Shown here: positions 802-10,098 of the stretch, one piece after another
Numbering within the stretch: position 1 is the stretch's first letter
Layout: every line of letters starts with the position of its first letter
The notes under the pieces: generated by a model
The model's input: only the letters and a program-made list of their open reading frames with translations
Databases searched by the model: none
What the model was told of the DNA's origin: nothing
Program-made: the position numbers and the translations under genes
Origin: an uncultured Anaerolineales bacterium
Lineage (GTDB): Bacteria; Chloroflexota; Anaerolineae; B4-G1
NCBI GenBank assembly: GCA_964643875.1
Contig: CAZXVB010000069.1
Coordinates: forward strand, 1-10,098
DNA length: 10,098 nucleotides
Direction: 5' to 3'

Positions 802-1794
802 TCAATTACCCTTCAATAATGCAGTGATATATCCCACAAGCACATCATCGTCGATCTCAGCACCGCCAAGTATTGTTGCGTTTGCTCCTATGAAGACCAC
901 CTCACCCGCTTCGTCGAAATTGAATTTTCCAAAGACCGGCCCGTCGGCGGTTTCCAGAATGGCGTAACCCTCTTGTGTTATGTCTGACTGCCGTTTGACC
1001 AGGGCATAATCGCCTTCGTTTGCCCCCAGGCTTTCCTGTACTTCTGGAGGGACTTCTATCACGTAGTACTCACCGTCCGGCTCCAGATAAACCCGTTGGG
1101 TGCCTTTCAAGCGCCGGGTCTGTAGGATGTGCTCTCCAACGCGCAATTGGAGCCGGCTCTCGCGTTCCAGGACGAAGCGGTCCACTTCTACCTCGGCAAG
1201 GGCGAATCCCCCTTTCGCTTTCCACAGGACGACGGGGATACAGATGCGTGTGGTCGGACTGACTCCGATGCGGGCGCCGGTGCGCGTTAGGTATTCCTGC
1301 AATGTCTCCACCCATTGCCGGATTCGAACACAGGTCTCGATGTGATTGGTGGCGTTGACAGTCGCCCATTCTCGGATCACTTGCTCGCACTGCCGATCGG
1401 CCTCCTCGTACCATTGAAGCGCGTCTATCTCGTTCCCCAGGGATTGCGAAACGAGTCCCAGGGCATAGATGACCACGGCCTCGTTGTGACGCTGACAACG
1501 GGACGTTTTTTGCCGTAAGAGACGGTACGCCCGCTGATAGCTGGACAGGGCCGGGCCCAGTTTGCCTACATTGTGGTGAATATCGGCCAGGTGGACCAGC
1601 GCAAGGGCAAGGCCGATCCAGTGACCAGGCTCTTGGGTTTTGGTGACTACAGCCTGCGCGCTCTGGATCGCCTCGGACAAGCGCCCTTGTCGGCGCAGAC
1701 GGCGAACGCGACTTAATAGCTCGTCTATGAAGGATGGTAGTTCCTCCCGACAGAGCAACTCAGACGGTGTCAACTCTTGTGGTAAACGGATCAT
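802..1794 (-). CDS. Soluble hypothetical protein: N-terminal TPR-like helical repeats plus C-terminal beta-strand-rich small-barrel domain (LexA/S24-like or NfeD-OB-like) (330 aa)
   Basis: Its start codon (1792..1794) overlaps the stop of the upstream SPFH gene by 4 nt (ATGA), which suggests translational coupling. There is no TM segment. The central region has paired amphipathic helices ('GLALALVHLADIHHNVGKLGPALSSYQRAYRLL', 'ALGLVSQSLGNEIDALQWYEEADRQ'). The C-terminal 130 aa ('IPVVLWKAKGG...LRVGEHIL...GDYALVKRQSDITQEGYAILETADGPVFGKF...DDVLVGYITALLK') follows the strand pattern of LexA/S24 C-terminal domains, but the GDSM serine position reads 'GEHI'. Confidence 0.55.
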   Translation of the reverse strand: MIRLPQELTPSELLCREELPSFIDELLSRVRRLRRQGRLSEAIQSAQAVVTKTQEPGHWIGLALALVHLADIHHNVGKLGPALSSYQRAYRLLRQKTSRCQRHNEAVVIYALGLVSQSLGNEIDALQWYEEADRQCEQVIREWATVNATNHIETCVRIRQWVETLQEYLTRTGARIGVSPTTRICIPVVLWKAKGGFALAEVEVDRFVLERESRLQLRVGEHILQTRRLKGTQRVYLEPDGEYYVIEVPPEVQESLGANEGDYALVKRQSDITQEGYAILETADGPVFGKFNFDEAGEVVFIGANATILGGAEIDDDVLVGYITALLKGN

Positions 1795-3326
1795 ACCCCG
1801 CTTCCTGTGTCCAACATGCGAATAGACTTGTAGAGGTCGCTGAGTGTTGCCTCTGTTCCTTCGCTTGTTTCAGATGGCGTTTTGCTTACTTCGGCTGTCT
1901 GTCCCAGCACGTTTTTCTCCAGCGCCTCGAGGGTGCGCAACGCCTCCGGGGGGAGGAAGGTCTGACTGAATGGATCGTACGCCATCCAGTGCAGAGCCTG
2001 GAACAAGCGCAGGGCGATTAGGTGAGAGGAGACTTCGCTCTGGGTGGATACGAATGGACGAATTGCTTCCGTCAGGGTCAGCACCATCTCGGCTTGCGCC
2101 TGGAATTGGGCGGTCTGGAGACTGGACAATACTTCCGCTTCCCCTTCCGCCAGGGTTTCGATACTCCGTTGCTCCCAATCGGCGTTCCAGGCTTCGATCC
2201 ATTGGGTCGAGATGCGTTTGTCTTTCACGTTTATCTTCCCCAAAGCGATGTTGAGCAATTTGGCCCCGATCTTGTTATCCACCGTCAAGGTGTTCTCCAA
2301 CTTGCTTCGCAACTGTTCTAGAATCTCCTGGCGGGGCGGCTTCTGGTCGGGTTGTGGGGGCTGAAGCAGCCAATCCAGTCGGTAGCGGGCCAGAATGTTC
2401 CGCAAAGCGCCTTCTACTTCGCTGATCATTACCCGCCCGGTCCAGTGGCGAAGCTGCTCCTGGTGATCAGGCTGTTTGATGCGTACCCAAATGGCCGTCG
2501 CGGCATTGAATACGGCCTGATCAGTGTAGGGCAGCGGTGTGGAGATACCTCCCTTTTCTATCTCCTCGGCAATGACGCGATCCAGCGCCTCCGGGAACGT
2601 CTTGCTCCTCAAAAAGTCATCTGGGATTTCGACCGGCGATACTTCCTGGACCTGACCATCTGCACCGACTACCCGATCATCGATTTTGAAAGTAACATCC
2701 ACTTCACAGGAAATCGGGATACCCTCCTTAGTCATCGCGTGGTCGGTGAACAGCCAGCGTTGTGGACGTAGGTCTATCACTTCCCAGATACGTTCATACG
2801 GTTCCAGGAAGCCTACGGATGGCCCCAGGACGCGGGTGAGCCGACCGGCCCGTTCCAACACGACGGCGCTGTCGTTATAGACAATGATGAACCCCGGCCC
2901 TCCCACCCGGTCGAAGAAACTGCCGCTTCCCACGGCGATCTTTCCTTCACGTACGATAATGATTGGCTTGAGCCTGCTCATTCCGAAGACCAGCCGCTGG
3001 AGGAAAGAGCGGGCTTCTCCCATATCCCTGGTATCGTATAGCCCTCGAATGAAGCGCGGCGCCAGCCATAGGAAAATGGCCGCCAAGGCGAGGAAGGCCG
3101 GCAATGAATTGTAGATTGCCCCGGGGAGCAGGGAGATCAGGCGCTGTACCCACCATTGCGTCTGAACGAAGAGAACGCCTTGCGGTGGAGTCTCCGGTAT
3201 AGCAGGGACGGCATCCGTCGGATGGCTGTGAGCTTCCGCGATGAAAGCAAGAGCCAAGATCAGGAGAAGTAAGATTAGCAATATAATCAGGCGATTCGAA
3301 TTCTGAGCTTGGAGTTTCCAGCGCAT
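1791..3326 (-). CDS. Membrane-anchored SPFH/band-7 (stomatin/prohibitin/flotillin/HflKC)-like protein, paralog 2 (511 aa)
   Basis: ATG at 3326 with AGGAG 8 nt upstream. The N-terminus has a hydrophobic leader/TM ('LIILLILLLLILALAFIA') and a second TM. The core 'GRLTRVLGPSVGFLEPYERIWEVIDLRPQRWLFTDHAMTKEGIPISCEVDVTFKIDD' matches the SPFH pattern (G.f..v.PG..f..P...v..vd.r.q......TKD...v.vd.vv.y.I.d). There is a long C-terminal helical/coiled region. It is paralogous to 3354..5015 (shared 'AMTK[DE]GI' and 'IEAW..EW' segments). Confidence 0.6.
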   Translation of the reverse strand: MRWKLQAQNSNRLIILLILLLLILALAFIAEAHSHPTDAVPAIPETPPQGVLFVQTQWWVQRLISLLPGAIYNSLPAFLALAAIFLWLAPRFIRGLYDTRDMGEARSFLQRLVFGMSRLKPIIIVREGKIAVGSGSFFDRVGGPGFIIVYNDSAVVLERAGRLTRVLGPSVGFLEPYERIWEVIDLRPQRWLFTDHAMTKEGIPISCEVDVTFKIDDRVVGADGQVQEVSPVEIPDDFLRSKTFPEALDRVIAEEIEKGGISTPLPYTDQAVFNAATAIWVRIKQPDHQEQLRHWTGRVMISEVEGALRNILARYRLDWLLQPPQPDQKPPRQEILEQLRSKLENTLTVDNKIGAKLLNIALGKINVKDKRISTQWIEAWNADWEQRSIETLAEGEAEVLSSLQTAQFQAQAEMVLTLTEAIRPFVSTQSEVSSHLIALRLFQALHWMAYDPFSQTFLPPEALRTLEALEKNVLGQTAEVSKTPSETSEGTEATLSDLYKSIRMLDTGSGV

Positions 3327-3353
3327 TGTTTATGCTCCTATCTTCAAACCGGT

Positions 3354-5015
3354 TCATGCCGGATTGCTGGTTTTTCGTTGGGCGTCCCGAACGACGCGTC
3401 TCGTATCTTTAGGTAAGTAGCGCTGCACCATCGGGCGGATGGCCATTTGGTTGATAAGGTCCAGGAATTGGGCCACAATCCGGTCAAACGTGGGAGCTTC
3501 TCCGCTGCGGCGCAATTCAGCGATCCGTTTCCCGATTTCCAGGATCACATCGGTCTGCGCCTGTGCACGTGCCCATTCGACGCGTTGTATACGAGTGTGA
3601 TGGCCTGCGGCCCGCTTGCGCATTATCTGGCGCACCCATTCAGTTTGCCAGGCCTCAATACGTTTTTGTAGTACCTGCTCATTGACTGGTTCAATGTTAC
3701 CAATCCCTCCACCAATCCGCTGAATTCCCCATCCAGGCAGGACTTTGTCCAACTCATCCCGGAACTCTTTGGCTATCCGCGCGCGAGGGTCGTCGCCAGG
3801 GTTATCGAACAGCTCGAAGGGGGCATACAGATCGTCGAAGTTGTACCGGGAGATGATCTCTTGCAGAATGCGCTCCCCGGCCAACTGTGGTAGGTCATAC
3901 CACTTGAGGGCCTCCAGTTGGTCAGGTTCCTGAGAAGGGTTCTTGTGGTCTATCACCTGGGCCTGGAACGCCCGGAAGACATCACTAGCCCGGTAGGGAT
4001 ACCCCCGTCCCAGCGCTGGGCGTTGCCCGCCGGCCCCCATCTGGAATGGGATGAAGGCGAAGAACTTGACTTCAATGCCGTCCTTGGTCATCGCTGTGAC
4101 GGGGAAAGCCCGTAGTTGCACCCGCAGATCAATCGCCTGAGTAGGGGTATCGGACATGCCGGTAAACACCACCCCCGGTCCTTTGGGGCCTTTGAACCGC
4201 AGCCCCGAAGAGATGGCAACAGCGTGATCGCATCCGGTAAGCACTAGGCCCGGCCCTGACAGGAATGCACCGTATGTGTCGCCTGCTGCCCGTTTGACCA
4301 GCCGTTCTTCGCCGGTCAGCCAGGTCCGGTTGTCCTCGGTGCGGGCCATAATCTTTTCATCTACAACGACATAGTAGGGATAGTTGGTGCCCAACGTATA
4401 TGTGATCAGGCAACGCAAAGCTTTGCGGCGGTGCTCGATCCATTCCTGACGGATGGCCTTGTTCTGTCGGAAACGGAACATCGCCAGGAAATCCAAAATC
4501 TGGTCTTTCAACATCGGCACTCCGCCCGGTTGGGGAGCGGAGCGCTTACCCCGATAAAGGGCATCCTGTGGTGGAGAGGGAATCAAAAAACCGGCCACAA
4601 AGAGAAGCCCCCCTCCGGCGATCAGGAGCGCTGGCACGGTAATGGTCAACACCCCCAACCAGCCGGAGCGCCATCCGACGCACCCGGCGAACCAGAAGTA
4701 GACCCAGGGGACGTAGAGGGACCAGGCCTTGATGCGTTTGTTGTTCGGTTCCATTGAGGGCAACAGAATCATCAACAGTAGGCCGGCTATTAGATTGGTG
4801 AAGAACCCCAGGGTTGGACCGCCAGCGATTATGCCCGACAGAGCCACTACAAGATAGAGCGTCATCCCTATCAGGCTACTGATGAGCCAAAATCCACATG
4901 TGATGGTGATGTCCAGGCGATTAAAAGTGGCGAGTTTGAGAAACAGGCCAATAGCTACCGTGCCGCCAATCGTCAACGTGGTCAAAAGCATCAAGTCATT
5001 GAGTAGGTCTGGCAT
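3354..5015 (-). CDS. Polytopic membrane SPFH/band-7-like protein, paralog 1 (about 553 aa)
   Basis: The ORF track starts at 5021 (MNMPDLLN), but the AAGGAG Shine-Dalgarno lies only 1 nt from that ATG and 7 nt from the second ATG (5013..5015), so the MPDLLN start is preferred. About 6 N-terminal TM helices are followed by the SPFH-like core 'GPGLVLTGCDHAVAISSGLRFKGPKGPGVVFTGMSDTPTQAIDLRVQLRAFPVTAMTKDGIEVKFFAFIPF' and a C-terminal helical region resembling that of the paralog. Confidence 0.6.
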   Translation of the reverse strand: MPDLLNDLMLLTTLTIGGTVAIGLFLKLATFNRLDITITCGFWLISSLIGMTLYLVVALSGIIAGGPTLGFFTNLIAGLLLMILLPSMEPNNKRIKAWSLYVPWVYFWFAGCVGWRSGWLGVLTITVPALLIAGGGLLFVAGFLIPSPPQDALYRGKRSAPQPGGVPMLKDQILDFLAMFRFRQNKAIRQEWIEHRRKALRCLITYTLGTNYPYYVVVDEKIMARTEDNRTWLTGEERLVKRAAGDTYGAFLSGPGLVLTGCDHAVAISSGLRFKGPKGPGVVFTGMSDTPTQAIDLRVQLRAFPVTAMTKDGIEVKFFAFIPFQMGAGGQRPALGRGYPYRASDVFRAFQAQVIDHKNPSQEPDQLEALKWYDLPQLAGERILQEIISRYNFDDLYAPFELFDNPGDDPRARIAKEFRDELDKVLPGWGIQRIGGGIGNIEPVNEQVLQKRIEAWQTEWVRQIMRKRAAGHHTRIQRVEWARAQAQTDVILEIGKRIAELRRSGEAPTFDRIVAQFLDLINQMAIRPMVQRYLPKDTRRVVRDAQRKTSNPA

Positions 5016-5209
5016 ATTCATACTCCTTGGCAGATGGGCAAATGATCTGGGAGAAAGATAATTGCTCTCATTTGCGGTTGTTCCTTAATTGCCGGTACAG
5101 GCTCTTCTTTCACTCGTGCACTCGCTGGGCAATCGTGGTAGCAACTATACTGGTTTTTCCTCAACAGAGATCGTGTTTCGGCTATGCGGGGACACAAACG
5201 CACTGGCTT

Positions 5210-5237
5210 GATTATATGTCAGAATAGTCTGAAAGCA
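5210..5237 (-). promoter_or_regulatory. Candidate sigma70-like promoter for the minus-strand SPFH operon (-35 TTGCTT 5237..5232, 16-nt spacer, -10 TATAAT 5215..5210)
   Basis: The minus strand reads '...ggattTTGCTTtcagactattctgacaTATAATcaagcc'. The -10 is a perfect consensus and the -35 matches 3/6. A start near 5203 would give a leader of about 190 nt to the SPFH start at 5015. Confidence 0.3.
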
Positions 5238-5359
5238 AAATCCAGTTATACCGCCTTGTACAGCATCGAGGCTCGCCATCTGGAATCGGGATACTGGCCG
5301 TATGATGATATTATACTGATTCTCATGTTTGAGACAAACTCTCATTACCCGACATTTTG

Positions 5360-5401
5360 ACCCTCCCGTAGGTTCGGATGCGGTTAACCCTGCGGGAGGG
5401 T
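5360..5401. repeat. 13-bp stem (one G-U wobble) with a 16-nt loop in the leader of the first NTPase gene; the right arm is a repeated 13-mer
   Basis: ACCCTCCCGTAGG (5360..5372), loop ttcggatgcggttaac, CCTGCGGGAGGGT (5389..5401). The arms are reverse complements with one position that pairs only as U-G in RNA. Flanking bases extend the stem by 2-3 weak pairs. No T-tract follows, so it is not a canonical terminator. It lies about 80 nt upstream of ATG 5484. Confidence 0.45.
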
Positions 5402-5483
5402 TAGCGAAAGACAAACTTGCCGTTGTCATTGTTCTATGGTATTCTTGTGCCAGCGGTGTGACAAAGTGATAGGGGAACCACAG

Positions 5484-7007
5484 ATGAGCAGCTACGGCCA
5501 CAGTTTTAGCCGCCGCTTGAACCGGTGGTTGGAAAAATTCGGCTTGATCGCCGATCCGTTTGCATTCTATGAGGCCGATCGGGAACGTTCGGACCTACCA
5601 TATTTCTTTGTGGATCGCCCATATCTGCATGACATGATCGGCGTTCCCGACCACCCCCAATCCGCCTTTCTCCTGGCCGGTCGAGGGGAAGGGAAGACAG
5701 CCACCCGGGAAATGGTGGCCTATGAGTGTTCGTATGCCAGTTTGCGTCGTCGCGCTCTCCCGGTGCGCTACTATGACTTTACCTCTTTGCTGGAACAAAC
5801 GGGTGGGGATCTCAGCCAGGTAACTATTGGTCATCATGTACGACTCCTCGCCCGACAGATTCTCAAAGCTATGATCGCAGAGATACCGGCGACGTATTTC
5901 GATCTCCTTGATGATTTGGAGCGGGGCATATTGATGGGATACATAGCAGAGTTCGGAGATCCGATTTCCCGATTGAAGTGGGAACGCATCCTGGCTACCG
6001 CTCCGTTGGCGTTGGAATGGGAAAAGCTTTCGCCGTCTGAAACGTTACAGACTCTGTCCAACCTGGTAGTCAAGTTGGGCCGCTCCCCAGACGCCACCTA
6101 CCAGGCGCTGTATGTACTGGTGGATCGGGTGGATGAGACTGCCGCTGGGCCAGATGCGGCCGTAGCACTGTTACGTCCTCTGGTCGCGGATCGTTTGCTC
6201 CTGGAAACTGAACACGTGGCCTTCAAATTCTTCATTCCTGAAGAGGTAGGCCATAGTCTGGAGCAGGTTGTCGATCTGCGCCCCGACCGTGTATGTATCC
6301 GCCGGATTTCCTGGGATGCGGAAGCGCTGCGGGCAATGGTAGAGCAACGCATATTCTATTATAGCGAAGGCCGTACCGCGCGGTTGGAGGAGATGTGCAC
6401 GTCAGGGGTCAAATCTATGGCGATGGAGCGGATGATCCGTGCTTGTAAAGGCTCCCCCCGTCACTTGTTGCGCTTGTGTCAGGCATTGATCCATCACCAT
6501 GTCCGCCATGCCAATGAGACCAACGCATTGATCACCCATGCGGATCTGGTTGATACTTTGCGGGAGTTCGAATATCGAACAGAGGTGGAGCATACGCCAA
6601 CAAAGCGGAGCGAGACCGTGCCCACTGTGGACAAGGGGCCAATCACCGAATCTACTATGTCTCCGTCAAAGCCGCCAGAACGAGGGTTGTACATAGATGC
6701 CGGTGGGCATGTCTGGGTGGACGGGCATCCTCTGACACCGCCGCTTCCCGATCTGGAGTTCCGGCTGCTGAATATCTTGTACCAGCGTGCGCCTGAGATT
6801 GTCCCCCATTCTGCCCTGATCGAGGCCATCTGGCCCACCGCCACCTGGATGTCTTCCGACCATCCTGGTGCTTACAAGTCTGATGAGCAGAACCTCCGCA
6901 AATTGATCGGTCGCTTGCGAGAGCGATTGGACCCTGACTCTCCTGGCCGAAAGTCGCGATTTGTGAAGAACGTGCGCGGGCGGGGATACTGGCTCTGCAA
7001 GGACTGA
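5484..7007 (+). CDS. P-loop NTPase (STAND-like N-terminal signature) fused to C-terminal OmpR/PhoB-type winged-helix DNA-binding domain (507 aa)
   Basis: ATG at 5484 preceded by AGGGGAA (7 nt spacer). The longer ORF from ATG 5436 has no Shine-Dalgarno. Walker A 'LLAGRGEGKTA' (about 5673..5702) is preceded by 'FFVDR' about 25 aa upstream. A Walker-B-like 'LYVLVDRVDE' lies at about 6108..6140. The C-terminus, 'LPDLEFRLLNILYQRAPEIVPHSALIEAIWPT...DEQNLRKLIGRLRERLDPD...SRFVKNVRGRGYWL' (about 6683..7004), matches the trans_reg_C consensus (LT..EfrLL..L.....v..r..L...vW....drtvdv.I.rLRkKl.......I.tvrGvGYrl). Confidence 0.75.
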   Translation: MSSYGHSFSRRLNRWLEKFGLIADPFAFYEADRERSDLPYFFVDRPYLHDMIGVPDHPQSAFLLAGRGEGKTATREMVAYECSYASLRRRALPVRYYDFTSLLEQTGGDLSQVTIGHHVRLLARQILKAMIAEIPATYFDLLDDLERGILMGYIAEFGDPISRLKWERILATAPLALEWEKLSPSETLQTLSNLVVKLGRSPDATYQALYVLVDRVDETAAGPDAAVALLRPLVADRLLLETEHVAFKFFIPEEVGHSLEQVVDLRPDRVCIRRISWDAEALRAMVEQRIFYYSEGRTARLEEMCTSGVKSMAMERMIRACKGSPRHLLRLCQALIHHHVRHANETNALITHADLVDTLREFEYRTEVEHTPTKRSETVPTVDKGPITESTMSPSKPPERGLYIDAGGHVWVDGHPLTPPLPDLEFRLLNILYQRAPEIVPHSALIEAIWPTATWMSSDHPGAYKSDEQNLRKLIGRLRERLDPDSPGRKSRFVKNVRGRGYWLCKD

Positions 7008-7055
7008 TTCGCCTCGTACGTTACACGCAGGGCGATTTCTGTCACACTCCAGACC

Positions 7056-7087
7056 GGGGCGTCATTTTTCTGTCCCCATGACGTCCC
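7056..7087 (+). other. Hairpin GGGGCGTCAT / loop ttttctgtcccc / ATGACGTCCC, 49 nt downstream of the first NTPase stop
   Basis: 10-bp stem with one mismatch and a perfect CGTCAT...ATGACG core. No U-tract follows ('acacaggtc'). It could be a factor-dependent terminator or protein-binding palindrome, or it could be chance. Confidence 0.2.
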
Positions 7088-7097
7088 ACACAGGTCA

Positions 7098-7126
7098 TTG
7101 ATTCCCTGGCAAGATTAGGATATGAT
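7098..7126 (+). promoter_or_regulatory. Near-consensus sigma70-type promoter: -35 TTGATT (7098..7103), 17-nt spacer, -10 TATGAT (7121..7126)
   Basis: Read directly from the sequence: 'cattgattccctggcaagattaggatatgatgacac'. It lies in the 243-nt gap between the first and second NTPase genes, about 125 nt upstream of ATG 7251, which implies NTPase genes 2-4 can be transcribed independently of gene 1. Confidence 0.4.
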
Positions 7127-7137
7127 GACACTATCCT
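7117..7137. promoter_or_regulatory. Operator-like palindrome AGGATA-N9-TATCCT overlapping the -10 element
   Basis: AGGATA (7117..7122), tgatgacac, TATCCT (7132..7137) form a perfect 6-bp inverted repeat with a 9-bp spacer spanning the -10 hexamer and the predicted start. TAGGATAG occurs again at 7237..7244, in the Shine-Dalgarno region. Confidence 0.3.
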
Positions 7138-7155
7138 CGTATAGTCTGCGATGGG

Positions 7156-7215
7156 CAGACGCCAGGTGACCGTTGCCAGACGATGGGGCGGTGAGAGACG
7201 GTCGCCTGACGTCTG
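7156..7215 (+). promoter_or_regulatory. Long imperfect palindrome / leader stem-loop (17-bp arms, 26-nt loop) followed by a T-rich tract, upstream of the second NTPase start
   Basis: CAGACGCCAGGTGACCG (7156..7172) pairs with CGGTCGCCTGACGTCTG (7199..7215): 15 Watson-Crick pairs, 1 G-U and 1 C-A mismatch. It is followed by 'TTGGTTT'. It lies between the candidate promoter (7098..7126) and ATG 7251 and spans the alternative TTG (7173). It could be an attenuator, terminator or regulator binding site. Confidence 0.3.
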
Positions 7216-7250
7216 TTGGTTTACGAGAAGAGGTTCGTAGGATAGCAAAA

Positions 7251-8756
7251 ATGGAGCCAATCGGTCGAGTCATGCGGCACGGATTGCCGAATCAACGCTA
7301 TCTGGATTTCGTTGGACGGTATCTACTTCACCGACCACCGGGTACACCATCGGTGGATCCATTCCAGCCTCAGTTGTCGGTGGAACAAATCGAAGGAGCA
7401 TATGTGGACCGGACGGCTGTCGAAAAAGAAGCCTGTCGGTTGGATACGCAGATCGTAATGGGCCGGCAGGGAAGTGGAAAGACAACCCTGGCGATCCGCT
7501 TGTCCACGCTGCTTCGACAGGGCGTGTTGGTAGTACCGGTTCCTATCGAACTGGCCGAGGTCTACGCTCGACTCGACTCAATCTCCGAGGGTTCAACGCC
7601 GCTGTCCCCCGGCCCTTTGGCAACACTCATATTCGACGCCTACTGGGAAAATCTGTTGTACAATCCGGCGCATCGAGGTCGTTTTTTACCCCGATTGCGC
7701 CAGGATCGGTTGTGGATGGTACGGCTGCGTTGGTTTTATCACCACTTGCCTCCCCGGCATCTTGAAATCCCAGAAGAGTTCGAGTTGATGACATGGCTGA
7801 GAGCCAGTCCATCCAATGAAATCTATGGGGCAGCGATGCGACCGGAGGATATGTTGAGGGAACTGATTCGATTCGTGACCTCGGCAGACCTATCCTTGGC
7901 CTCAGCATGGACACAGGCGTATCGCGCTCGCGCTCCTTACGAACACATTCAAGTGCTTCTGGATGGCGTGGAACATTGCTCGGAGGCCGGGCTGGAGCGT
8001 TTGGGTCGGGATGTGACCTGGCTCCATCGTTTATCTCTGGAAACAGGGCGTATTTCATTCAAACTATTTGCCGGTGACTATTTGCGTGAGGCCTTCGAGA
8101 GGATACGCTGTGTTCAATCCGGGCAAGTAACTCTATACGCGCTTCCTCTATGGAGCGAAGATGACCTCCGACGGTTATTGTACCGCCGTCTGGCGATGTG
8201 GATGCCGGGGGAGAGTATCGCGCCGACGGATTTCTCGGATCGTCGGGAACGGATGACTGAACTTCGGAAGGCTCTGTCCCATTTCCTGGATGAAGAAGGG
8301 GTAAAAACCCTCTGTCGCGATCTGGGAATAGATTATCAAGATTTACCGGCTCAAGGGAAAACGAACAAACTTCGAGAACTGATCGCTCAAATGGAGCGAC
8401 GGGATCGCCTCTCCGAATTATTTGCGATTTCCAGTCGGATCTGCCCCCAATTGGAGTCCCGGTGGCCCATCCCTTCAGAAGGGAAAGAGGGTATGAAGTG
8501 GGAGTCCAATTGGGGAATGCGTATTCCCGACTGCTATTTGACGTCGTTGGCTCGGAAGCATCTGGTCAGAGAGATCGTCGCGGGCGCCCTGCGGGTCTAC
8601 AAGCAAGAGGATGCCTGGGATGCGCCCATACACTTGCTGAAGTTAGCCCGTGGTCTCCTGGCTGCTTCCGTGGGATGTTGGAAAGAACAAGGATTTTGCC
8701 CCCCGCTCAATATCGATCAAATAGCCGCTTTGATCGATTCGTACTGGGCCACATAA
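7251..8756 (+). CDS. P-loop NTPase (STAND-like), paralog of 5484..7007, with internal EAD-like helical adaptor segment (501 aa)
   Basis: ATG at 7251 with AGGAT 7 nt upstream. The ORF track begins at an in-frame TTG at 7173 with no Shine-Dalgarno. Walker A 'VMGRQGSGKTTLA' (about 7455..7493) is preceded by 'YVDRTAVEKE'. Both this protein and 5484..7007 share the N-terminal layout DPF-x13/15-[FY]VDR-x16/20-GRxGxGKT. A Walker-B-like 'IQVLLDGVEH' is present. The segment 'VKTLCRDLGIDYQDLPAQGKTNKLRELIAQMERRDRLSELF' (8265..8430) is read by memory as an effector-associated-domain-like helical module. Confidence 0.7.
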   Translation: MEPIGRVMRHGLPNQRYLDFVGRYLLHRPPGTPSVDPFQPQLSVEQIEGAYVDRTAVEKEACRLDTQIVMGRQGSGKTTLAIRLSTLLRQGVLVVPVPIELAEVYARLDSISEGSTPLSPGPLATLIFDAYWENLLYNPAHRGRFLPRLRQDRLWMVRLRWFYHHLPPRHLEIPEEFELMTWLRASPSNEIYGAAMRPEDMLRELIRFVTSADLSLASAWTQAYRARAPYEHIQVLLDGVEHCSEAGLERLGRDVTWLHRLSLETGRISFKLFAGDYLREAFERIRCVQSGQVTLYALPLWSEDDLRRLLYRRLAMWMPGESIAPTDFSDRRERMTELRKALSHFLDEEGVKTLCRDLGIDYQDLPAQGKTNKLRELIAQMERRDRLSELFAISSRICPQLESRWPIPSEGKEGMKWESNWGMRIPDCYLTSLARKHLVREIVAGALRVYKQEDAWDAPIHLLKLARGLLAASVGCWKEQGFCPPLNIDQIAALIDSYWAT

Positions 8757-8788: not shown

Positions 8789-10006
8789 ATGGTCAGTTTC
8801 CAAGATCGCAAGGAGTCACTGAAACAGATATGTGATCCTGCCAATAGAGGTTTCCTGTTGAACATTTATGGGGAGGCCGGCATTGGTAAATCCCGCTTGA
8901 TGATGGAAGCCAGAGAGCGATTACGGAAAAATTCTCCGCCGACGTTGGTGTTCTACGTGGACCTGAAGCCTGTATCACAGCGAGCGCCAATGGAACGTCC
9001 CGCCGTGTTACTTCAAGAGCTGTTGAGTCGCGCGGAAGGCCGTCTGAGGGTGGAAGGGCAGGGAGTCGAGTATGATGCGGGGCAAATCATTGCTCAGTTG
9101 ACCGCACTGTCCAATCAAAATCCTGTGACGTTGATGTTCGATACCACGGAAACGTTGCAGGAGGATATGGAGTTCTGGAAGTGGTTGGAAACCAATCTAA
9201 TTGGGCCTCTGGTCGTCGAAGGGAGCGTACAATTGATATTTGCCGGCCGGATTCCCGTTCCCTGGCGGCGGGTGGAAGTGCGGCGGGCGGTCAAGCTGCT
9301 CCTTCTTCAGCCCCTTCACCCTCAAGAAGCAGCTCGCGAACTGGCCCGCGAGGTGTTACGCCAACACAATGCACACTGGAACGAAGCCGTGTTGGAACAA
9401 GCGATTTCTTTGGTATTAGAATTTTCGTTTGCACATCCATTATTGTCCGAAAAGTTGGCGGAATTCATTGCGCAAGAGTGGCAGCCACCGCCTGGCTACA
9501 ATACTGGTTCTGGCCGTTCCAATTCCGATAGCCTTGATTTCGGCAGTGAGTTCCGAGGAAAGTTGTGTAAAGAGGTGGTGGAGCCATTTGTCGAACAGCA
9601 CCTTTTGGAAACAGTAGAACCAACCTGGAAGAAGATCCTGTGGTGGGTCAGCGTGCTGGATTGGTTCGATGCTACAATTTTGCAACGTTATCTGCGGCTA
9701 GTGGCCCCGAACATGAGCACTGACAAGCCCGATTATTTTTTCGTGCAGGGTCTGACACGTTTGCGCATCCATCACACCGTTGTTTGGCGAGAGGAGAGGG
9801 GAGACCGAATGCATGGCGTGATTGGGGACATCATGCGACATTGCCTCCAGGTACAGAAGCCGGAGGTCTATCGTCAGGCATGTCTGAAAGCGGCCGAGAT
9901 GTTCGATGAGCTGGCCGGGGAGTTCGAGGATGACCCAGAGGCAGATCGGTATCGTCAACAGGCTGAGAAATACCGCCGACGTGCGGCACAGGAGGTAGAG
10001 GTATGA
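8789..10006 (+). CDS. STAND-type P-loop NTPase (405 aa)
   Basis: Strong Shine-Dalgarno GAAAGGAGAGG 6 nt before ATG 8789, 32 nt after the stop of the upstream gene. 'FQDRKESLKQI' is followed by 'FLLNIYGEAGIGKSRLMMEA' (Walker A, about 8870..8893), and Walker B 'VTLMFDTTE' lies about 85 aa later (about 9124..9150). The C-terminal 250 aa are helical with no recognisable effector or repeat sensor domain. Confidence 0.75.
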   Translation: MVSFQDRKESLKQICDPANRGFLLNIYGEAGIGKSRLMMEARERLRKNSPPTLVFYVDLKPVSQRAPMERPAVLLQELLSRAEGRLRVEGQGVEYDAGQIIAQLTALSNQNPVTLMFDTTETLQEDMEFWKWLETNLIGPLVVEGSVQLIFAGRIPVPWRRVEVRRAVKLLLLQPLHPQEAARELAREVLRQHNAHWNEAVLEQAISLVLEFSFAHPLLSEKLAEFIAQEWQPPPGYNTGSGRSNSDSLDFGSEFRGKLCKEVVEPFVEQHLLETVEPTWKKILWWVSVLDWFDATILQRYLRLVAPNMSTDKPDYFFVQGLTRLRIHHTVVWREERGDRMHGVIGDIMRHCLQVQKPEVYRQACLKAAEMFDELAGEFEDDPEADRYRQQAEKYRRRAAQEVEV

Positions 10007-10098
10007 GCGAGAGAGATTTGACTGAACGCACTCCCAAAATGGTTGGACGACAGGAAGAAACGGTCCGCTTGAGAAAGCACCTGTATGCCCGTGGCGAA
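10003..10098 (+). CDS. 5' fragment of a fourth P-loop/STAND-like gene, truncated by the window end (MSERDLTERTPKMVGRQEETVRLRKHLYARGE...)
   Basis: ATG 10003 overlaps the TGA of the upstream gene (ATGA), which suggests translational coupling. 'MVGRQEETVRLRKHL' is the classic 'hhGRExEl..L' element that precedes the Walker A in STAND NTPases. Only 32 codons are visible, so the call rests on the motif and the operon context. Confidence 0.45.
   Translation, partial: MSERDLTERTPKMVGRQEETVRLRKHLYARGE

Follow-up and report, generated by a model that had tools for sequence, protein, structure and literature searches.

The window analysed here is a 10,098-bp stretch of DNA from an uncultured Anaerolineales bacterium (GenBank:CAZXVB010000069.1), and the subject of this work is a gene in it, designated g1, which encodes an ATPase carrying a C-terminal winged helix-turn-helix (wHTH) domain. 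An initial annotation had placed g1 at the head of an NTPase array, and it is indeed the first of four adjacent P-loop NTPase genes (g1 to g4). The gene and the parts of its deduced product are as follows.

5484–7007, + strand: coding sequence of g1 (ATPase, linker and wHTH), 507 aa plus stop codon, 100% identical to the 507-aa protein P0001
5484–6593, + strand: ATPase module (aa 1–370), with a conserved N-terminal DPF...EA..E motif and a lid containing SPR (R326)
5676–5699, + strand: Walker A of the ATPase module, A65-GRGEGKT72
6114–6137, + strand: Walker B of the ATPase module, V211-LVDRVDE218
6594–6683, + strand: linker (aa 371–400), disordered (predicted local distance difference test, pLDDT, 51–73; no secondary structure), in variable alignment columns
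6684–7004, + strand: OmpR/PhoB-type winged helix (aa 401–507), with recognition helix D466-EQNLRKLIGRLRERL-482 and wing RFVKNVRGRGYWL

The ATG at 5484 was taken as the start of g1 because P0001 is 507 aa long, the homologue alignments start there, and the alternative ATG at 5436 (523 aa) is situated within the conserved −10 region (see below); this alternative was rejected, database gene calls also beginning at 5484. In an alignment of 113 homologues, K71 of Walker A, D214 of Walker B, R289 and R326 were invariant or nearly so. The AlphaFold2 model of g1 (113 homologues; pLDDT 91.8, predicted template modelling score 0.79) was made up of three parts: residues 1–370 form an alpha/beta ATPase that has a helical insertion and a lid, residues 371–400 the disordered linker, and residues 401–505 a winged helix. 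The modelled N-terminal part adopts an ORC/Cdc6-like AAA+ fold, with base plus lid, Walker A, Walker B and lid arginine all present. The NTPase region had initially been put at about 430 aa; a P-loop ATPase it is, but one of about 370 aa, followed by the 30-aa linker. Among NCBIfam models, g1 scored 80 bits with the subfamily model ATPase_Sll1717 (NF047389), above the cutoff of 75, the match covering residues 43–379 of the 523-aa version of g1 and profile positions 2–350 of 454, and 182.6 bits with the equivalog model DS41_1_antiphage (NF053860), under the cutoff of 370. The Pfam model ORC-CDC6-like (PF24389) gave 20.4 bits (cutoff 27) over the N-terminal ~75 residues only; this match is precomputed for some of the g1 homologues.

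At the C-terminus, Pfam Trans_reg_C (PF00486) matched with 41.4 bits (gathering threshold 26.2, E 1.5e-10), and the fold agreed with the domain proposed initially, with a beta-sheet at its N-terminus, then three helices, of which the recognition helix is long, and a beta-hairpin wing at its C-terminus. The recognition helix (NLRKLIxRLRxRL) and the wing (RGRGYWL) were conserved across homologues as strongly as the ATPase motifs. As had been claimed, a receiver domain is missing: no Response_reg match was obtained for g1 in Pfam or NCBIfam and no phospho-acceptor aspartate was recognised, and the RpaB and CopR models align to the last ~80 residues of g1 only. Neither the NBD-HD1-WHD core with a profile match that defines STAND NTPases (NACHT or NB-ARC) nor the N-terminal OmpR-type wHTH followed by BTAD that defines SARP/AfsR was found in g1. 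We infer that g1 represents a type of transcription factor without prior description, in which an ORC/Cdc6-like ATPase is joined to a PhoB/OmpR-type domain predicted to bind DNA.

For comparison of gene neighbourhoods, loci numbered with the prefix L were collected, 64 from a genome-collection scan and six from contig look-ups, and all open reading frames (ORFs) in them were compared with the window proteins by BLASTP. The initial annotation had proposed a motif search in the intergenic regions on both sides of g1; it yielded direct repeats of TGTGACA with an 11-bp period, conserved across loci, both at the promoter of g1 and in the spacer between g1 and g2. A candidate DNA target for the wHTH copies of g1 is TGTGACAnnnnTGTGACA, and the regulatory features in the window are these.

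5417–5445, + strand: g1 promoter, −35 TTGCCG (5417–5422), 17-nt spacer, extended −10 TGgTATTCT (5437–5445)
5446–5463, + strand: candidate operator O1, half-sites TGTGCCA (5446–5452) and TGTGACA (5457–5463), 11 bp start to start
5471–5477, + strand: Shine-Dalgarno sequence of g1, preceding the ATG at 5484
7040–7099, + strand: candidate operator array O2, in opposite orientation to O1, with a strong site TGTCACA at 7040–7046
7060, 7071, 7082 and 7093, + strand: weaker repeats of O2 in 11-bp phase (CGTCATT, TGTCCCC, CGTCCCA and GGTCATT, respectively), reaching into the −35 box
7098–7126, + strand: promoter-like element for g2-g4, TTGATT, 17 nt, TATGAT, with 9/12 sigma-70 matches
7156–7215, + strand: g2 leader hairpin with 18-nt arms (minimum free energy −51.1 kcal/mol, z −3.58)

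The g1 promoter was kept nearly base for base in orthologous loci of 41–85% protein identity (consensus CTTGCC-17 nt-TGnTATTCT), and it is on this conservation and the TG of the extended −10 that its assignment rests. O1 follows the −10 immediately, extends across the expected transcription start to about +12, and has a position weight matrix (PWM) dimer score of 22.1 bits. Of the 16 orthologous loci with sequence upstream of g1, 14 showed the arrangement TGTGACA-N4-TGTGACA at the g1 promoter in a regex search; the O1 of the window is a one-mismatch variant of it. In most loci the non-coding g1-g2 spacer measures roughly 140–440 nt; in L009, with an uncertain start of g2, it is 54 nt. Tandem copies of TGTCACA in 10–11-bp phase occur in the spacer in nearly all loci with the cassette. 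A perfect TGTCACACTCATGTCACACTCA is present in L018. In L001, both the O2 array and the promoter-like element (TTGACC, 17 nt, TATGAT) are kept, and the earlier statement that g2 is separated from g1 by a promoter of its own is borne out by this element.

A third TGTGACA cluster, beyond the end of the window contig, was located in the orthologues 80–150 nt downstream of g4. There, after a terminator-like hairpin behind g4, two to five repeats overlap a promoter of the TTGACA-17-TATGAT type. The first ORF after this promoter (56–71 aa) has a conserved leader motif, LRLxFFP, and a C-terminal CDCAC(K), resembling a precursor of a peptide made by the ribosome and modified after translation (RiPP); it is followed by genes for a radical SAM/SPASM protein (~405 aa) and a membrane protein of ~200 aa, and in some cases by one for an MFS exporter. 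No NCBIfam model reached its cutoff with the proteins of this RiPP-like module, which lies at the following positions.

L001, 8187–10190
L007, 9350–9650
L008, 17480–18969
L009, 17595–19117
L014, 11450–12913
L018, 14780–16333
L023, 13620–15179

The PWM was trained on the sites upstream of g1 only, the spacers and the post-g4 regions being outside the training set. It detected 12.1 dimers per kb upstream of g1, 2.6 in the g1-g2 spacers and 0.14 elsewhere, and most matches outside the first two regions were those of the post-g4 cluster. Exact heptamers were counted in 11 non-redundant loci, with Poisson probabilities, and numbered 1) 12 upstream of g1 versus 0.06 expected (218-fold, P 1.6e-24), 2) 14 in the g1-g2 spacers versus 0.11 expected (122-fold, P 6.9e-25), and 3) 4 in the post-g4 region versus 0.07 expected (P 8.9e-7). 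The enrichment across the three regulatory regions was thus 58- to 218-fold, and the remaining 152.5 kb contained only 7 copies. The histogram of heptamer spacings had a sharp peak at 11 bp (17 pairs). The window's two perfect heptamers are both intergenic, in the regions that border g1 on either side. Conserved and enriched 11-bp direct repeats at the promoter and in the spacer are the signature expected of an OmpR/PhoB-type locus autoregulator.

Around distant wHTH-bearing homologues with different recognition helices, TGTGACA was not found, and other 11-bp tandem repeats were located just downstream of the gene (TGTCGC three times in L062 and GATGTC twice in L033). The occurrence of other repeats beside differing recognition helices fits a g1-type protein specifying its motif, although the evidence is anecdotal.

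The three genes that follow g1 in the window are listed below.

7251–8756, + strand: g2, divergent paralogue of the g1 ATPase in which EAD7 (Pfam EAD7, E 7.8e-15) replaces the wHTH
8789–10006, + strand: g3, STAND-like NTPase of ~400 aa with weak Pfam matches to ATPase_2, AAA_16, AAA_22 and NACHT
10003–10098, + strand: 5′ end of g4, the first 32 codons, overlapping the g3 stop by 4 nt and ending with the contig

The order g1, spacer, g2, g3 and g4 was kept in at least 13 Chloroflexota loci as judged by BLASTP, with g2, g3 and g4 abutting or overlapping. The kinship of g1 and g2 was visible only by profile-profile comparison of the two families (hhalign probability 97.7%, E 2.1e-12, 261 columns), the BLASTP match being marginal (E 0.015). 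Between cassette loci g2 is variable (26–80% identity), and its adaptor in L009 and L010 is bDLD1 rather than EAD7; no partner EAD7-effector gene was present within the window. All cassette loci contain g3, at 33–81% identity. The g4 translation (MSERDLTERTPKMVGRQEETVRLRKHLYARGE) agrees with the N-terminus of g4 in L001, and in orthologues g4 encodes ~1000 aa with AAA_16 and TPR. In related loci caspase, SIR2, PNP, TRADD-N and EAD9 are fused to the same ATPase.

The search with g1 covered 5.8 billion proteins and gave 147 relatives. The 120 listed relatives had 41–100% identity to g1, almost all being 480–520 aa long, and the taxon names that were given pointed to Anaerolineae and Chloroflexota. 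PF00486 is precomputed in 119 of these 120 listed homologues. A hidden Markov model built from the g1 wHTH recognised the same C-terminal domain in many ATPase relatives of 25–40% identity, several of which were confirmed by Pfam, so that the C-terminal extension, on whose retention by orthologues the first assignment had been made to depend, is kept. The full ATPase-wHTH architecture formed more than 140 clusters at 90% identity, and the ATPase part alone, compared with 1.84 billion representatives (50% identity representatives), gave 1095 matches at E<=1e-3. Paralogues have TIR (P0135), Schlafen/AlbA_2 (P0152), Swt1-like HEPN (L027) or a protein kinase (L042) at the C-terminal position where g1 has the wHTH, and N-terminal additions include 1) CHAT, 2) caspase plus SIR2, and 3) PNP plus TRADD-N, EAD9 and caspase; P0083 has the architecture EAD7-TIR-ATPase-wHTH. 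From these architectures, the Sll1717/DS-41 ATPase appears to be a shared switch module with swappable output domains, the output in the g1 lineage being a DNA-binding domain. Replacement of the wHTH by output or effector domains in paralogues agrees with the wHTH acting as output domain of an ATPase switch.

Transcription factors coupled to an ATPase are well known, examples being AfsR/SARP, MalT, NtrC and DnaA, and an ATPase followed by a C-terminal DNA-binding domain is common (MalT/LAL, DnaA, ORC/Cdc6 and NtrC). The domain order of g1, which the initial annotation had regarded as atypical, is inverted relative to SARP/AfsR, but not unusual elsewhere. In the actinomycete SARP/AfsR proteins, an OmpR-type wHTH with BTAD, with or without NB-ARC ATPase and TPR, is located N-terminally, whereas that of g1 is C-terminal. 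MalT/LAL, DnaA and ORC share with g1 the ATPase preceding a C-terminal DNA-binding domain; however, this domain is of LuxR type, domain IV or the ORC winged helix, respectively, instead of OmpR/PhoB type, and g1 has no TPR/sensor region in its polypeptide and belongs to a conflict cassette, not to a sugar regulon or a replication origin. PhoB/OmpR response regulators have the same DNA-binding fold and the conserved wing motif VRGxGY, but depend on a receiver and phosphorylation, whereas control in g1 would come from the 370-aa ATPase. PhoB, at the pho box, and the SARPs bind tandem direct repeats with a 7-bp core, a 4-bp spacer and a TGTCA core. The pho box is similar to the candidate operator of g1 in its TGTCA core, its units of 7+4 bp and its tandem direct repeats reaching the −35.

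The neighbourhood of g1 resembles the conflict systems described by Kaur, Burroughs, Iyer and Aravind (2020/2021), in which EAD7, bDLD1, EAD9, TRADD-N, caspase, SIR2 and TIR occur with NTPases. These NTP-dependent systems have linked peptide-processing modules and are enriched in filamentous, multicellular bacteria (PMC7159879, PMC8195603). In the same papers the single mention of a wHTH is a kinase fusion, and transcriptional output is represented by an ECF-sigma-like HTH fused to TRADD-N; in a term search of both (PMC7159879, PMC8195603), neither OmpR nor Trans_reg_C nor a winged helix fused to an ATPase was found as a component. The same terms gave nothing relevant in the STAND survey of 2026, and no literature was found under the name 'Sll1717'. 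We thus found no description of a fusion of the Sll1717/DS-41 family ATPase with an OmpR/PhoB domain in the literature, and databases label it only 'winged helix regulator'.

DS-41 (WP_033812887.1, 502 aa) is a single gene of E. coli, found by DefensePredictor, that protects against several Bas phages (PMC13092281). BLASTP aligned g1 with it over residues 16–355, the ATPase part only, at 24% identity (E 3e-25). The two proteins have in common the (D/N)PF...E motif, Walker A/B, the SPR lid, a similar length (502 versus 507 aa) and a C-terminal domain of ~100 aa; they differ in that DS-41 acts by itself, from an E. coli plasmid or island, and g1 is the first gene of a four-gene cassette with candidate operators of its own. 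The C-terminal 103 aa of DS-41 had no Pfam match at E<=10 and are not Trans_reg_C, and the C-terminal ~100 aa of DS-41 have no sequence relationship to those of g1. Judged by these scores, g1 is a homologue of DS-41 and not an equivalog. It was also noticed that the C-terminal ~100 aa of DS-41 read by eye like a helix-turn-helix with a wing, that L071 (E. coli plasmid CP058102.1, 86180–87688) represents the DS-41 gene on conjugative IncF plasmids, and that the neighbours of this gene are one for a RES-family NAD+ phosphorylase and the toxin-antitoxin genes ccdAB and relE/parE. The relationship ties DS-41, validated but mechanistically unexplained, to a family with a swappable C-terminal output (wHTH, TIR, HEPN, kinase or Schlafen).

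Our best reading is that g1 would be an ATPase-switched, autoregulated and locus-specific transcription factor, for which we infer the binding to the repeats, the sign of regulation at each promoter, the gating by nucleotide and the activating signal. It is probable, judging from the repeats at its own promoter and in the spacer before g2, that g1 binds TGTGACA and controls its locus, which agrees with the autoregulatory or locus-controlling switch suggested initially. The winged helix is predicted to bind the direct repeats of 11-bp period as head-to-tail multimers. Occupation of O1, over the transcription start, would shut off g1 (negative autoregulation). At O2, the array reaching the −35 has the position of a PhoB-type activator and may recruit RNA polymerase to g2-g3-g4, or possibly occlude it, and the third set of repeats would act in orthologues on the promoter it covers, that of the precursor peptide and radical-SAM/SPASM operon. 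The ORC/Cdc6-like ATPase would be the switch, its nucleotide-dependent oligomerisation setting whether strong sites only or also the weak arrays are occupied, as with ATP-DnaA. Gating of oligomerisation seems the most plausible role because the catalytic residues are intact, the fold is ORC/DnaA-like and the C-terminal domain is the output in this family. The activating signal is probably related to invaders or stress, in view of the ATPase family and the neighbours. With a predicted operator and a predicted regulon of three promoters, g1 makes the silencing and switching on of large conflict or defence cassettes directly testable.

A more far-reaching proposal, which we put forward tentatively, is that a DS-41-like ATPase, from a family with a validated defence gene, exchanged its killing or effector domain for a PhoB-type DNA-binding domain and became an immune transcription factor sensing infection or damage. 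Upon ATP-driven oligomerisation it might spread from a strong operator over the phased weak sites, switch on an apoptosis-like death-domain/STAND module and alter expression of the radical-SAM peptide in filamentous Chloroflexota. If true, bacteria would have a counterpart of CIITA and other NLR-type transcriptional regulators, and expression of an abortive-infection module would in this case be inducible, not constitutive.

Several observations weigh against g1 as the regulator acting through these repeats. In the window alone, the motif counts do not exceed chance: exact heptamers number 2 versus 1.07 expected, and dimers, with as many as 2 mismatches allowed, 4 versus 0.75 expected, a number reached in 2 of 200 shuffles; the significance of the repeats lies only in their placement and conservation across loci. 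The link between g1 and the repeats rests on co-occurrence and on the known preference of the family for tandem direct repeats, the half-site TGTGA resembles CRP-family sites, and position is all that indicates the sign of regulation. In addition, the g1 promoter has 8/12 matches to the sigma-70 consensus and is not called by a simple scan requiring at least 9/12, and a clear O1 is missing in L016. The regulon is also not fixed, since L019, L021 and L022 have g1 and O1 with no g2-g4 nearby. In L027 and L042, paralogues bearing HEPN or kinase, not wHTH, adjoin 11-bp tandem repeats, so that repeats of this kind can occur where no wHTH gene is adjacent.

Of the other explanations, the one that survives best, though we consider it rather unlikely, is that g1 is a SARP/LAL-like pathway-specific regulator of a radical-SAM-modified peptide, with g2-g4 as signal-sensing accessories and no immune role. 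The precursor-like ORF (LRLxFFP, CDCACK) and the radical SAM/SPASM operon after g4 are under the same repeats, and SARPs also bind heptameric direct repeats of 11-bp period in antibiotic clusters. However, g2 carries EAD7 or bDLD1, related loci add caspase, SIR2, PNP, TRADD-N and EAD9, and P0083 combines EAD7 and TIR with the ATPase and wHTH. Such domains are typical of the conflict systems that Kaur et al. described, which themselves include linked peptide-processing modules (PMC7159879, PMC8195603), and the ATPase family contains a validated defence gene.

Homology of the g1 ATPase to DS-41, which protects as a single gene, raises the alternative that g1 is a stand-alone anti-phage protein, its ATPase sensing infection and its winged helix binding invader DNA to block replication or transcription. 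The ORC/Cdc6-like fold, typical of a family that binds DNA in an ATP-dependent manner, and the three loci carrying g1 without the cassette are consistent with it, but we regard it as improbable: the DS-41 equivalog score is under the cutoff of 370, the C-terminus of DS-41 is not Trans_reg_C, PADLOC models matched none of g1, g2 and g3, and the conserved repeats that the host encodes at three promoters in the locus, that of g1 itself among them, would be left unexplained. Moreover, it does not exclude regulation, as a sensor from a defence family could use transcription as its output.

The least probable explanation, that the TGTGACA repeats serve another regulator (e.g. of CRP/FNR type) or promoter architecture while the wHTH of g1 has other targets or a non-DNA role, could draw on the CRP half-site TGTGA, on the facing pairs at the post-g4 promoter, which look partly palindromic, and on the repeats of L027 and L042 without an adjacent wHTH protein, but it is opposed by 1) the direct spacing, exactly 11 bp in 17 of the scored pairs and constant, whereas that of facing pairs varies from 10 to 13 bp, 2) the g1 promoter, with direct repeats only, 3) the motif accompanying g1 orthologues in every locus, with almost no copies in 152 kb of flanking DNA, and 4) its absence around distant homologues with a differing recognition helix.

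Repeats of another kind were observed in L027 (2175–2235) and L042 (12160–12215), where four tandem 11-bp TTAACC(T) repeats lie immediately upstream of an extended −10 (TGTGGTATAAT). They are located between the HEPN- or kinase-bearing paralogue and a TIR-bearing paralogue, in an operator-like geometry. The gene for their regulator may lie in another place; a wHTH paralogue is present in L031, which belongs to the same metagenome-assembled genome as L027.

With respect to distribution, L017 (JAOZPL010000326.1), a contig with the bin label Candidatus Zixiibacteriota, matches the window with 100% identity at the N-terminus of g1 and with 94–98% identity in the SPFH gene described below. The other relatives are all Chloroflexota, and therefore this bin label is probably a binning conflict. 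Further labels outside Chloroflexota were Candidatus Hadarchaeum for one homologue and Dojkabacteria for one locus.

Two loci lacking g2 have a giant protein encoded directly upstream of g1, in L018 (5245–8568) a 1107-aa protein with PNP_UDP_1, TRADD-N, EAD9, caspase and ATPase, and in L023 (4492–7323) a 943-aa protein with SIR2, caspase and ATPase. In the window, the products of a divergent operon (802–5021, − strand) are two large proteins of the SPFH/Band7 type, of 555 and 511 aa, and a TPR protein that has a hexapeptide-repeat match at its C-terminus. The SPFH/Band7 and TPR genes were rejected as members of the system, as they adjoin g1 only in near-identical contigs and have no operator repeats near them.

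A structured leader had been attributed to g1, which proved incorrect: the g1 leader is only about 30 nt and unstructured, and the leader hairpin belongs to g2. The hairpin near g1 is a GC-rich inverted repeat with 13-nt arms (5360–5401, ACCCTCCCGTAGG / CCTGCGGGAGGGT), situated upstream of the −35, in the interval that separates the g1 promoter from the divergent SPFH gene; neither strand has a T-run there, and the repeat is absent from L001, an 85%-identical orthologue. The g2 leader hairpin is partly conserved, an unrelated hairpin being present in L010, L011 and L013 and none in L008 and L020. In L010 (11650–11715) and L013 (4065–4130), a hairpin followed by a U-rich tract (UUUUUGUUGUUUG) right before the g2 start looks like a terminator or attenuator. 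As a general feature of the g2 leader this was rejected, since hairpin plus U-tract was confined to the L010/L011/L013 clade and absent in L008 and L020. No Rfam match (E<=1) was obtained over 4900–7400, and ARAGORN detected no tRNA or tmRNA.

Other short repeats were noticed near g1 in individual loci. Upstream of the g1 promoter, tandem repeats of the GAATGAAAGAATGGGA type are present in L010 (9790–9930) and L013 (2290–2340), and in L008 (11468–11545) a direct duplication of ~40 nt (CCGCCGCGCCGTCCCTGTGGGACTCTGCGGGGCAGG) immediately follows the g1 stop codon.

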